Assembly: GCF_056712565.1 (NCBI RefSeq)
Contig: NZ_CM160072.1
Strand: one strand, 5' to 3'
DNA: 64,000 nt
In this document: in pieces, positions 547 through 16,493 of the stretch
How positions within the stretch are numbered: position 1 is the stretch's first letter
Layout: every line of letters starts with the position of its first letter
Notes under the pieces: generated by a model
What the model was told of the DNA's origin: nothing
Databases searched by the model: none
What the model saw: only the letters and a program-made list of their open reading frames with translations
Position numbers and translations under genes: made by a program

Positions 547-581
547 TATAAATGCCGGGTAAAGATTGTTCTTTATCCGGC

Positions 582-1079
582 TTATTGCTGAAAATTGTCT
601 TTTTCAAAGTCATGCGGGTTGAACACTCGCTCTATCTTATTTTCCTGGGTTAGTTGATACTCATTGTTATCAGCAATAAAAAAATGAGTATTACGGTAAG
701 GATATTCATTAATAACCATTAAATAGTTTTTTACGATGCAATTATCATTGCTCTTAATCGTCGGGAAACAGTAGAGATCTTCATACGGCCCTTCGATATA
801 TTTTTTATAGTCAGTGAAGCCATTACCGATATCAATAACATACCAGGTATGCCAACTATCTTCTGGTAGGGGATTTTGACTTTTAATTTCATCCTGATGC
901 TTCAGATACCAATTTATTTTATCGCTATCAGTCCATGGCAGATGATCAACGACCAGAAAGACTGAATTGCCAGCATCAGAGTATGTATACAAAATCTGTA
1001 CAGGACGCAATATCCATAAATTATAGATGCAGCATAGAAGAAATAAATATAATATAATTTTCTGGAGTTTTCTTTTCAT
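582..1079 (-). CDS. Hypothetical 165-aa protein with N-terminal hydrophobic signal/anchor (candidate immunity or accessory partner)
   Basis: ORF in an AT-rich stretch; N-terminus MKRKLQKIILYLFLLCCIYNLWIL is hydrophobic; start overlaps the upstream ORF stop by 4 bp (ATGA coupling). No recognisable family. Confidence 0.55.
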   Translation of the reverse strand: MKRKLQKIILYLFLLCCIYNLWILRPVQILYTYSDAGNSVFLVVDHLPWTDSDKINWYLKHQDEIKSQNPLPEDSWHTWYVIDIGNGFTDYKKYIEGPYEDLYCFPTIKSNDNCIVKNYLMVINEYPYRNTHFFIADNNEYQLTQENKIERVFNPHDFEKDNFQQ

Positions 1080-1924
1080 AGATAATTTTCGATTCTTTCG
1101 ATAGTGTTAAAATTGGTGAAAAAAGGTTTGAAAGCAAAGTCTTTATGCCGTTGTAAAAAGAACCATATGCGAAAAAATCTATACTTGTTGTAAATCTTGT
1201 TTTTTATATCAGTCACATCCAAACCAAAGTGGTCTTGTGCTATGAAATGAATGGTAGCGCTCCAGCCCATAGGATATTTTTGAAAATTTAAAAGAGATAT
1301 TTTTTGAGCTGAGATATCATGAATGCTGATTCCCAGGCCATTAAAATTATCTTTAAAATCATTGAATTTATTTAGTCTTGATGAAAGTAATTCGGTCTTA
1401 ATCTTTTGTAGGAGAAGAGGCCGGTATCCTATCGTAGGTGTTGAAGAAATATCATTTTCGATACATTCTTTGATTACACGTATTGGGCTATTATAATCAT
1501 ATTTGTTTATTCGTTCATGAAAAGATAAGTTCAATTCCTGGCTATGGAAACTGTTGCCATTTTCATATCTAAAATGATCAATCAGATCCTGGATGAGTGT
1601 TTTGTATTGTCCAAAAAAGGAAAACATTTTTGCCAGATCTTTCATTTCTGCAAATAAAATATCAATACATTCACTTTGTGATATTTTTGTTCCAGAAGTT
1701 GGAACACTAAAAGCACCATAAGTAGAATTCGGCCCAGGAAAATGGTATTTAATGAGGCGGTAAGGATCAACTTTTGCAGAGATGTCGCTTAAGCCGAGAG
1801 AGAGAAAATCTTGTTCTTCCATATCCCCATACTGCATATCATCAGCAGAAAAATCATCGAATAAAGTAATAGTTTCGAAAAGTGTACAGGGCATATTAAT
1901 TGATGAGCCTAATATGTTGTTCAT
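1076..1924 (-). CDS. Hypothetical 282-aa protein (candidate effector/toxin or defence component)
   Basis: Long ORF in AT-rich DNA, translationally coupled to the downstream 165-aa ORF; no recognisable motif by eye. Confidence 0.55.
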   Translation of the reverse strand: MNNILGSSINMPCTLFETITLFDDFSADDMQYGDMEEQDFLSLGLSDISAKVDPYRLIKYHFPGPNSTYGAFSVPTSGTKISQSECIDILFAEMKDLAKMFSFFGQYKTLIQDLIDHFRYENGNSFHSQELNLSFHERINKYDYNSPIRVIKECIENDISSTPTIGYRPLLLQKIKTELLSSRLNKFNDFKDNFNGLGISIHDISAQKISLLNFQKYPMGWSATIHFIAQDHFGLDVTDIKNKIYNKYRFFRIWFFLQRHKDFAFKPFFTNFNTIERIENYL

Positions 1925-2234
1925 TTATATTCTCCTTTCTTATAATTAAGGGCAATGTTAATTTGATAAGAAATAATAGGGTAAAAAAATTTTAAAAAAG
2001 AAATGCACTTCACATTTTTTATTACATTCTGAAGATAACTTGGTTAATGATTGGTCTTGCTCATCGCTAATAACATAATGATGAATTTACCAAAAATGAA
2101 ATTTATTAAAGCAAATGAAAATATACAACGACGTCTGGAAATTCTGCCTTTCCTTATGTGAGTCTCCTGTCAGCATGGCAATATGCCCACTCTCATGCAA
2201 GAGTCGGCATATTTTTTCAGAATATATTTATTTT

Positions 2235-14301: not shown

Positions 14302-14562
14302 TTATTTATTCTCACGTTGCACGAGATTGTATCCCTTTTCACTAACGTGGTAGTGAGGCATAGACTTATGCCCGCTATCCTCAATAATAACCAAACCTTC
14401 GTTAGCTAATTTGTTAACAATATTAACAACATTACCGAATCCTGGTATTTGCCTTATGGATAGTGTGCGATCGAGATTCATCCAGTTCCAGTTTATATCT
14501 TTCTCAGTCATAACGTTCAGCACGTTAAGTTCATTTTTAGTGATCACGATATTCTGTACCAA
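14302..14562 (-). CDS. Putative immunity protein, copy 2 (86 aa)
   Basis: Paralogue of the adjacent 85-aa ORF (shared blocks NVL.VM.EKDI.W.WM.LDRTL.IR.IP.FGNV.NIV.KL...GLV); sits downstream of the toxin domain in AT-rich DNA. Confidence 0.6.
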   Translation of the reverse strand: MVQNIVITKNELNVLNVMTEKDINWNWMNLDRTLSIRQIPGFGNVVNIVNKLANEGLVIIEDSGHKSMPHYHVSEKGYNLVQRENK

Positions 14563-14621
14563 AATTGATGAGTATCTTATTGAAAGATCACAATGTAAAT
14601 CATGCTCCTGTAATGGCTGGA

Positions 14622-14879
14622 TCAGAAGAGGTTGTCTTGTTGTTCTTTGATAAGATTCAATCCATATTGAGAAACTCTGTAGCGTGGTTTAGAGTTGCCC
14701 TCACCATTTACGATATCAACCAACCCATGATTAACCAGCTTTGTTACGATATTCGCTACGTTGCCAAATTCTGGAATATTTCGTATAGCTAAAGTACGAT
14801 CCAGCACCATCCAGCTCCAGTCAATATCTTTCTCAGCCATAACTTTCAGCACGTTAAATTCAACTATCGTAATCGTCAT
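14622..14879 (-). CDS. Putative cognate immunity protein, copy 1 (85 aa)
   Basis: Start overlaps the stop of the upstream toxin-domain ORF by 4 bp (ATGA), the classic toxin-immunity arrangement. Confidence 0.65.
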   Translation of the reverse strand: MTITIVEFNVLKVMAEKDIDWSWMVLDRTLAIRNIPEFGNVANIVTKLVNHGLVDIVNGEGNSKPRYRVSQYGLNLIKEQQDNLF

Positions 14880-16009
14880 TTTTTTGCATCCGGATGAAAT
14901 AAGTCAGTATCTTTAATTTTAAAGTCTTCTAGAGTTGCAGTATGTGCATTATTCCATAATTCATATCCATCTAAACCATTCGGTTCACCTGTTTCCCATC
15001 CTAAATTACAATAACGCTGATACTCGCGGCATTCATGAGTATAGTAGTTCAGATCGTATTTTTCAGGAAGCAATTCTTTATTTGCTATTTTTTTTAGCCT
15101 TGAAATCATTACATCATTAGCTGGATCATGATCAAATCTGGAGATATGCTTTTCAACAATAGCGATACCTTCCCTATTGATTGTTACGCCATCTATCGTC
15201 AGGTTTTCTATTGGACCACCGGCAAGGTCGGGATTAAATGGTCTTCCTGATACTGCTCCTCTGGCTCCGAAATGCTCAAATGATTCCAAATCAGGGAATC
15301 TCATTCTTCCCAGAACAACTCCAGCAACTATTGAAGCACCAGCGATGAGTAACCCTTTGTTATCCATAACTTGATCGTAACCAGCAGGTGCATCTCCTCC
15401 CAACTTGTTTGCTGTTTCCCTGAATCCTTCGATATTCCCATTGTATATGCCGCCAGCAGCAAGCAGTCTGCCAACCGCTTTACTATTGAGTGTTTTGAGG
15501 CCATTATTATCTTTAGTTTTTTGCCGTGGTATAAACAGACGGTTGTAGTTATCGGGAAATGCCAAATGACTAAATTCAGTATTAGCAATCAGATGCCTGG
15601 AGAGTATATATTCATAACTGACAGTGATGGTTTCTGTATCCAGATTGTTCTCAGTAAACAGGTGATTGATTGCTGATAAGAGCGCGCCGCGGAGTTGAAT
15701 GTTGTAATATTTCTCCTATCGACCAAATCTATTGATCCGATAGAAGTCAAACTCCATGAACAACTGCTCGTTATTGTTAATAGCGTTAATAAGTAACGGG
15801 GAGCTTTTGTCAATCAACTTACAGAAACTAAGGCCATGTAATTGTGACCCTTTGCCTGTATTCGTAATACTATTAGATAGCGAGAACGCGAAGATTTCAT
15901 CTTCATGGCCAATCTGCCAGCGATTACCTATTGATGCGCTCGTTCCGCAACGAGAGGAAATACATCCTTGTTGTTCTCCGGTTATGGTCAGGTAAATTTC
16001 ATCACTCAT
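14876..16009 (-). pseudogene. Hcp-toxin fusion (Hcp-ET-like T6SS tube protein with C-terminal extension) interrupted by an in-frame TAG
   Basis: N-terminal 97 aa (MSDEIYLTITGEQQG...GHEDEIF...KLIDKSSPLL...FYRIN) are Hcp-like; an in-frame TAG at 15716-15718 is followed without further stops by an approx. 280-aa extension (frame checked codon by codon). The 229-aa C-terminal ORF 14876-15565 is the toxin-domain portion. Confidence 0.7.
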
Positions 16010-16493
16010 CTTTGATGAACTCTCTTTATTGCTTGATGTTTTAAAAATAAACAATATTGCTATTTGTTTATAATTATTTACTCCTCAAGTTAATGGATTT
16101 AAATATGGGAAATAAAATGTTTCACTTTAGACCAGTTTTCATGAGGAAAATCTGTAATCATTAATAATAAACATGAATATTTTGCAGTGATTAATATTTG
16201 TTATGAATATAATCTATAACAATGAAGAGTTATCAGTTGTTCGGTGTATAGCCAGAGACGAGTTCAGTTTGTGATTTTTACAGGGCAGTTACAGCCGCAA
16301 AATTTTATGGCTGATTTCACCTTCCCCTCAAGCTTATCTTTCTTAAAAAGAGAAATAATTCTTAAATTCAAATAGTTATATACAATCTACTCTCTTTCTT
16401 GTGACTAGCTTCACATTTCATACTGATGCATTGGAATGAAATAAAATTTCATGAGATTTTGTGTTTGAGAAAAATTATTTCATTAGGTGTGAA

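Follow-up and report, generated by a model that had tools for sequence, protein, structure and literature searches.

A probable orphan type VI secretion effector–immunity cassette of the DUF3289/DUF943 family between corA and rarD in Escherichia coli

Here we consider two overlapping AT-rich genes located between corA and rarD in a stretch of 64,000 nucleotides (NCBI RefSeq assembly GCF_056712565.1, contig NZ_CM160072.1), below referred to as the window, which is 100% identical to DNA of the Escherichia coli type strain ATCC 11775. The genes encode proteins of 282 and 165 amino acids (aa), which RefSeq names in ATCC 11775 "YPO3983 family protein" and "DUF943 family protein", respectively. The pair is a member of the published DUF3289/DUF943 family of effectors and their immunity proteins (PMC11148199; PMC12135965), and probably it constitutes an orphan effector–immunity cassette of a type VI secretion system (T6SS), the longer protein being the toxin (effector) and the shorter one providing immunity.

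The gene pair and its family

The effector covers the complete TIGR03034 profile (394.3 bits at a cutoff of 156.45, positions 1–274 of 274) and nearly all of Pfam DUF3289 (PF11692; E = 3.2e-82, model positions 2–270 of 272), the latter being its only Pfam match, while the immunity protein matches DUF943 (PF06092; E = 3.5e-27, model positions 2–150 of 151). An earlier note on this DNA, made from its letters only, had described both proteins as having no recognisable motif; this was wrong, as both strongly match Pfam/NCBIfam families. At the composition of the module, stop codons make up approximately 7.5% of random codons, and simple arithmetic gives the chance of an open frame as about 3e-10 for 282 codons and 3e-6 for 165 codons. 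Given these low probabilities together with the end-to-end matches to curated families, both open reading frames (ORFs) are real genes. Both are intact and evolve under purifying selection, with the ratio of non-synonymous to synonymous divergence (dN/dS) of the effector being approximately 0.18 between the two allele classes described below.

Each of the two predicted folds matches one chain of a single solved T6SS effector–immunity complex: the effector has the fold of the solved family member, and the immunity protein that of the solved cognate immunity protein. The gene arrangement is also retained in relatives. In two stand-alone Enterobacter homologues of the effector (51% and 41% identity), a DUF943 gene lies directly downstream with the same 4-bp overlap, and these pairs too are orphan cassettes situated between unrelated housekeeping genes, with rlmG and a transposase-like gene flanking one pair, and an acetyltransferase gene and valS flanking the second. 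At the junction, the minus strand of the window reads ...AAT TAT CTA TGA AAA..., so that the effector stop codon TGA shares letters with the immunity ATG. The two ORFs and the ATGA overlap had been proposed in the earlier note, which did not give the strand; both are found at the positions given there, on the minus strand.

The N-terminus of the immunity protein, MKRKLQK, has four basic residues (K2, R3, K4 and K7) preceding a hydrophobic stretch. The best 19-residue Kyte–Doolittle window scores 1.87 (residues 8–26), and in the AlphaFold2 model residues 2–24 form a single helix followed by a globular alpha/beta domain, the latter containing two invariant cysteines, C104 and C114. The predicted topology is thus an N-terminal membrane anchor at approximately residues 5–26, with the N-terminus inside and the remainder in the periplasm. 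A hydrophobic signal or anchor had been suggested at this end of the 165-aa protein, with its absence named as grounds for abandoning the pair; the membrane segment is present.

The effector has neither a signal peptide nor a hydrophobic N-terminus. A search of 1.84 billion representative proteins yielded 440 DUF3289 relatives, and residue conservation was assessed in an alignment of 59 well-covering representatives (23–50% identity). In the numbering of the window protein, D29, H232, F233, G234, D239, W254, L257, Q258 and P267 are invariant, and D34, D231, L235 and D236 nearly so; the window effector carries every family-invariant residue, including the run D231-H232-F233-G234-L235-D236-x-x-D239. 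A Pfam scan of the same representatives revealed two kinds of fusion partners. The first are T6SS-type domains (PAAR, n = 10; the PAAR-like DUF4280, n = 1; Hcp/TssD, n = 1). The second are wall-related ones (PG_binding_1, n = 3; Peptidase_M23, n = 3; a glycoside-hydrolase-like domain, n = 1), with LysM, SH3 and M14 domains also seen. Such a spectrum is what would be expected if the toxin is delivered by a T6SS and has the cell wall as its target. The PAAR-fused representatives are only about 35–37% identical to the window effector.

Origin and spread of the locus

In E. coli K-12 the gene order is corA–yigF–yigG–rarD, with yigF and yigG together occupying 775 bp. A longer order is found in strain 201609 and in Nico21(DE3): corA, DUF943, DUF3289, a 147-bp duplicate of the corA 3' end, yigF, yigG and rarD. 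O157-like strains show a third form, with a hypothetical gene where yigF/yigG would be. The corA–rarD interval is a variable hotspot for inter-bacterial weaponry. The module spans 1343 bp, approximately 1.7 times the length of yigF/yigG in K-12, where the earlier note had estimated roughly twice.

The module is an AT-rich insertion of approximately 1.5 kb at the 3' end of corA that was acquired horizontally. The GC content is 0.329 in the effector gene, 0.335 in the immunity gene and 0.29 in the 310-bp upstream spacer, compared with 0.531 in corA, 0.506 in rarD and 0.509 in the whole window; at third codon positions it is 0.29 and 0.35 in the two module genes and 0.62 and 0.72 in the corA and rarD flanks. 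The marked AT-richness relative to the flanks, already remarked in the earlier note, is hence borne out. Where the distal part of the locus is retained, the insertion is bracketed by direct repeats of 147 bp of the corA 3' end, 92.5% identical to each other, with the distal copy annotated as a CorA pseudogene fragment. Because this duplication brackets the insertion, the comparison suggests that the cassette may have arrived together with the corA 3' end of a donor, by homology-assisted recombination. At the module edges we found neither terminal inverted repeats like those of insertion sequences (IS) nor short target duplications, the corA duplication of the other strains being the sole flanking repeat. 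The window matches the module-bearing strains up to approximately position 2091, and homology resumes inside yigG; besides the distal corA repeat, this lineage has therefore lost yigF and the greater part of yigG.

The coordinates of the features are collected in Table 1. The hairpin downstream of the module is probably a bidirectional terminator, taking the place of the corA terminator hairpin of K-12. No LexA box was found near the module, and the window contains fewer LexA matches than expected by chance; for lack of such a box we rejected SOS or colicin-type regulation of the module.

Table 1. Features of the corA–rarD interval. Positions are those of the window unless another record is named.
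Feature	Position	Strand	Basis or remark
Effector (toxin) gene, stand-alone DUF3289 / TIGR03034 "YPO3983 family", 282 aa, 33 kDa, WP_001059672.1	1076..1924	-	
Immunity gene, DUF943, 165 aa, WP_000823787.1	582..1079	-	
ATGA stop/start overlap, coupling translation of effector and immunity genes	1076..1079	-	Sequence reading; same overlap in homologous pairs
Shine–Dalgarno sequence AAGGAG, 7 nt 5' of the effector ATG	1932..1937	-	Direct sequence reading
AT-rich upstream region (~27% GC), came in with the module, presumed promoter site	1925..2091	-	Composition; homology to module-bearing strains stops at ~2091
Hairpin with a 12-bp stem between the convergent corA and module	554..581	.	K-12 sequence diverges right after the corA stop codon
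Inserted non-K-12 DNA carrying the module	547..2091	.	blastn against K-12 and against strains with both module and yigF/yigG
Decayed yigG 5' remnant, reads GRISRRRCIFSFALINFIF, in-frame stop upstream	2092..2178	-	blastn comparison
Distal 147-bp corA repeat in other strains	L002 (strain 201609) 2212-2358; L003 2209-2355; L014 3026-3172		Absent from the window

The module is widespread in the species. At a coverage of at least 80%, it is present in 2633 of the 5426 complete E. coli genomes, and it falls into two allele classes, one with at least 95% DNA identity to the window (929 records) and the other with 80–90% identity (1723 records, including O157:H7, O111 and BL21). Between the classes, the effectors share 84.4% of protein residues (dN 0.078, dS 0.44, dN/dS 0.18). 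As this dS is three to four times that of the adjacent corA (0.11–0.14), the alleles are either older than the species backbone or were imported separately.

Strain 201609 is a mosaic (its positions 683–2025 against 582–1924 of the window): the effector is of the O157 type (dS 0.44), and the immunity protein is of the window type (dS 0.011, 96.4% aa identity). Since this strain mixes the alleles, a recombination breakpoint should lie at or near the effector–immunity junction. The mosaic also raises the question of allele-specific immunity. Two divergent effector alleles with approximately 84% protein identity circulate in the species; should immunity prove specific to the allele, competition between strains in the gut could be mediated by them.

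Elsewhere in the window, several accessory gene blocks lie between rmuC and metE (approximately 16500–37500; record positions 4,746,049–4,767,042). They comprise an IclR/dgo-like/TctABC tricarboxylate transporter block, an fdrA–DUF1116–arcC–cytosine permease block, and an hxlB–ptsG-like–tkt block adjoining an Hcp pseudogene. We take these blocks to be absent from K-12. With them the window is rich in accessory islands.

Delivery, activity and alternative explanations

The host possesses a T6SS. In ATCC 11775 all 13 core genes are found at the aspV tRNA gene (NZ_CP033092.2, 3,741,385–3,767,267), approximately 1 Mb from the module. The cluster includes tssA, B, C, E, F, G, H, J, K and M, icmH/dotU (tssL), two hcp genes and vgrG, as well as a VgrG–DUF2169–PAAR-like effector module, and none of its genes is flagged as a pseudogene. 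A literature search on the T6SS of ATCC 11775 returned nothing relevant. The suggestion of the earlier note that the pair might be an effector with a periplasmic immunity protein is supported by the family assignment, by the fold matches to one solved complex and by this intact system.

If the pair functions as an orphan T6SS cassette, the effector would be made in the cytoplasm without a signal peptide, loaded on the aspV T6SS and injected into neighbouring Gram-negative cells, where, once in the periplasm, it would target the cell wall or precursors thereof, with rounding and lysis as the outcome. The immunity protein, produced by translational coupling, would be held in the inner membrane by a single N-terminal helix with its globular domain in the periplasm, and this domain would bind and block the incoming toxin, protecting the producer and its kin. 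The effector being cytoplasmic and the immunity domain facing the periplasm, the toxin presumably reaches the periplasm from outside, as it would by T6SS. From the literature on relatives we carry over, by analogy, toxicity in the periplasm, its relief by DUF943 and secretion that depends on a T6SS, and we infer expression of the E. coli pair, its delivery by the aspV system, its loading and its chemistry.

A colicin M-like activity of the Yersinia toxin has been proposed from a Foldseek match to PaeM (PMC11148199). We used as bait a colicin M sequence that is identical to PDB 2xmx_A over all 271 residues. The hhalign comparison of the DUF3289 profile with ColM was insignificant (probability 0.1%, E = 0.52), no ColM-family member appeared in the DUF3289 profile search of PDB sequences, and the colicin M catalytic motif D-x-Y-D-x5-H-R is absent from the window effector and from all 59 DUF3289 representatives. 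A segment resembling the DKYDFNASTHR of ColM, NKYDYNSPIR (effector residues 140–149; window 1505–1476, minus strand), was considered and rejected as a chance look-alike, being unconserved and located in a variable, partly gapped region. We would not file the effector in the colicin M family of lipid II-cleaving bacteriocins (ColM, PaeM, syringacin M, pectocins M1 and M2), although it may act in a similar manner, by interfering with wall synthesis from the periplasm. In the accessible literature we found no assay of lipid II cleavage between undecaprenol and pyrophosphoryl-MurNAc-peptide-GlcNAc for any DUF3289 protein. Colicin M-like attack on lipid II by the effector is a possible, weakly supported mechanism. 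Published use of the label "colicin M homologue" is based on a structural similarity that is weak, and it does not extend to the catalytic motif. As this label is supported neither by the motif nor by the profile, the enzymatic activity of DUF3289 is the point worth an experiment.

Somewhat doubtful, in our estimate, is the alternative that DUF3289 represents a distinct class of periplasm-acting enzymes with an invariant acidic/histidine site (D29, D231-H232, D236, D239, Q258) and another envelope substrate; the orphan cassette might also be maintained without dependence on a T6SS (BL21 has none at aspV), perhaps in the role of an island of defensive immunity.

Several observations weigh against a T6SS-delivered orphan cassette in E. 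coli. No PAAR, VgrG or adaptor gene is evident near the module, nor is a loading domain evident in the effector, and its 33 kDa exceed the size of typical cargo of the Hcp lumen. The BL21-derived Nico21(DE3) carries an intact module as well as a yigG pseudogene, and its aspV site holds only IS1 and ISAs1 elements and remnants, with no T6SS; hence a strain can have the module without a T6SS at that site, and the link between the two is not strict. A promoter scan upstream of the module gave 8 sites against 8.9 expected after shuffling, none above chance. The DUF3289 family is not uniform, because the effector of Aeromonas jandaei pairs with another immunity protein. In the searchable literature we found no experiment on this E. 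coli pair.

An alternative is a relic or an immunity-only cassette, one that has ceased to serve as a weapon in this strain, being silent (AT-rich, possibly repressed by H-NS) or unloaded, and that persists through the protection its immunity protein gives against DUF3289 attacks by neighbours. Retention of the module in a BL21 derivative without a T6SS at aspV, the lack of a promoter above chance and the orphan site far from any adaptor, VgrG or PAAR gene all fit such a reading, as do the different histories of the immunity and effector alleles in strain 201609 and the decay of the other T6SS effector of the window, an Hcp fusion. We nevertheless consider it unlikely, given the intact effector ORF with every family-invariant residue and dN/dS of about 0.18, the strong Shine–Dalgarno sequence and the retained translational coupling; besides, the module occurs at a coverage of at least 80% in 2633 genomes, and the T6SS of the type strain is intact.

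The decayed fusion is of the Hcp-ET type, an Hcp joined to a toxin, at window positions 14302–16054 (minus strand); the earlier note probably had this locus in mind when it spoke of another T6SS effector in the window. RefSeq has a single 1134-bp tssD pseudogene with an internal stop there; the ORF list splits it into an Hcp N-terminal part (15716–16054) and a 229-aa C-terminal part (14876–15565), the latter matching two PHROGs of unknown function (E of approximately 1e-15). Two tandem paralogous ORFs of 85 and 86 aa follow (14622–14879 and 14302–14562); their likely role is immunity, given the 4-bp overlap of the first with the toxin ORF.

Much less probable than an orphan T6SS cassette is a T6SS-independent, bacteriocin-like system, in which a colicin M-type enzyme would be freed by lysis or another route and imported by targets, with DUF943 in the role of the colicin M immunity protein Cmi. 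Still more improbable is an anti-phage defence or abortive-infection toxin–antitoxin module, which the earlier note had offered as an option and for which we found no support. The small size, AT-richness and horizontal acquisition of the two-gene cassette, which is polymorphic for presence or absence, would suit it, but PADLOC returned no families for either protein at E up to 1 and PHROGs none, and both proteins match the solved T6SS effector–immunity complex. Moreover, the neutralising partner has a membrane anchor and a domain in the periplasm, and toxicity of the toxin's relatives is confined to that compartment; this geometry fits inter-bacterial effectors and immunity proteins rather than a cytoplasmic toxin–antitoxin pair. 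Finally, the genes share position and orientation between corA and rarD with K-12 yigF/yigG, but their being divergent orthologues of these, an outcome that the earlier note had allowed for and that we checked by comparing the corA–rarD interval across strains, is rejected with near certainty, since other strains hold the module and yigF/yigG side by side, K-12 YigF belongs to another family (DUF2628) and a decayed yigG remnant adjoins the module in the window.

Comparison with known systems

An orphan T6SS cassette of this family would give a functional label to two genes of "unknown function" that approximately half of sequenced E. coli carry, the type strain, O157:H7 and BL21 among them. 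T6SS effector–immunity pairs as a concept stay unchanged, as the family, the immunity partner and the T6SS delivery of a relative have already been published.

PIX-class orphan effectors have also been described with DUF3289 as their toxin domain at the C-terminus, and in Enterobacter DUF3289 adjoins VgrG; a survey of Klebsiella links DUF3289–DUF943 pairs to a T6SS (PMC12469244). More distant is the pair of the C-terminal domain (CTD) of BtpeA and BtpiA from Bacteroides fragilis (PDB 9jdi, 9jg8 and 9jg9), which comes from another phylum. BtpeA is a 608-aa PAAR-type effector requiring the adaptor BtapC, and sequence identity to the window pair is only approximately 21% between the effectors and 11% between the immunity proteins. 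The hidden Markov model (HMM) match to BtpeA omits approximately the first 90 profile positions, that is, the N-terminal third of the enterobacterial DUF3289 domain.

Among the proteins that A. jandaei secretes in a T6SS-dependent manner is the orphan DUF3289 protein WP_042032936.1 (Fridman et al. 2025, PLoS Biol, PMC12135965), and its pair behaves as a bona fide effector–immunity pair in competition assays (PMC12135965). Like the window effector, it is a stand-alone DUF3289 with an immunity gene directly downstream. Its immunity protein differs, being 95 aa long with a signal peptide and three transmembrane (TM) segments, and does not belong to DUF943 (PMC12135965).

For the Yersinia pseudotuberculosis IP32881 pair T6EC1/T6IC1, the PAAR–DUF3289 toxin expressed in E. 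coli shows toxicity solely when directed to the periplasm, making the cells round up, and the DUF943 protein, with a predicted TM segment at residues 7–26 and the remainder periplasmic, rescues the cells (PMC11148199); according to its authors, neither secretion nor mechanism was demonstrated (Geller et al. 2024, Mol Syst Biol, PMC11148199). In Yersinia, the toxin carries a PAAR fusion and is encoded inside a T6SS operon, whereas the window DUF3289 stands alone in an orphan position between corA and rarD. Otherwise the two pairs agree in the same two Pfam families, in the order of toxin followed by immunity, and in the topology of the immunity protein.

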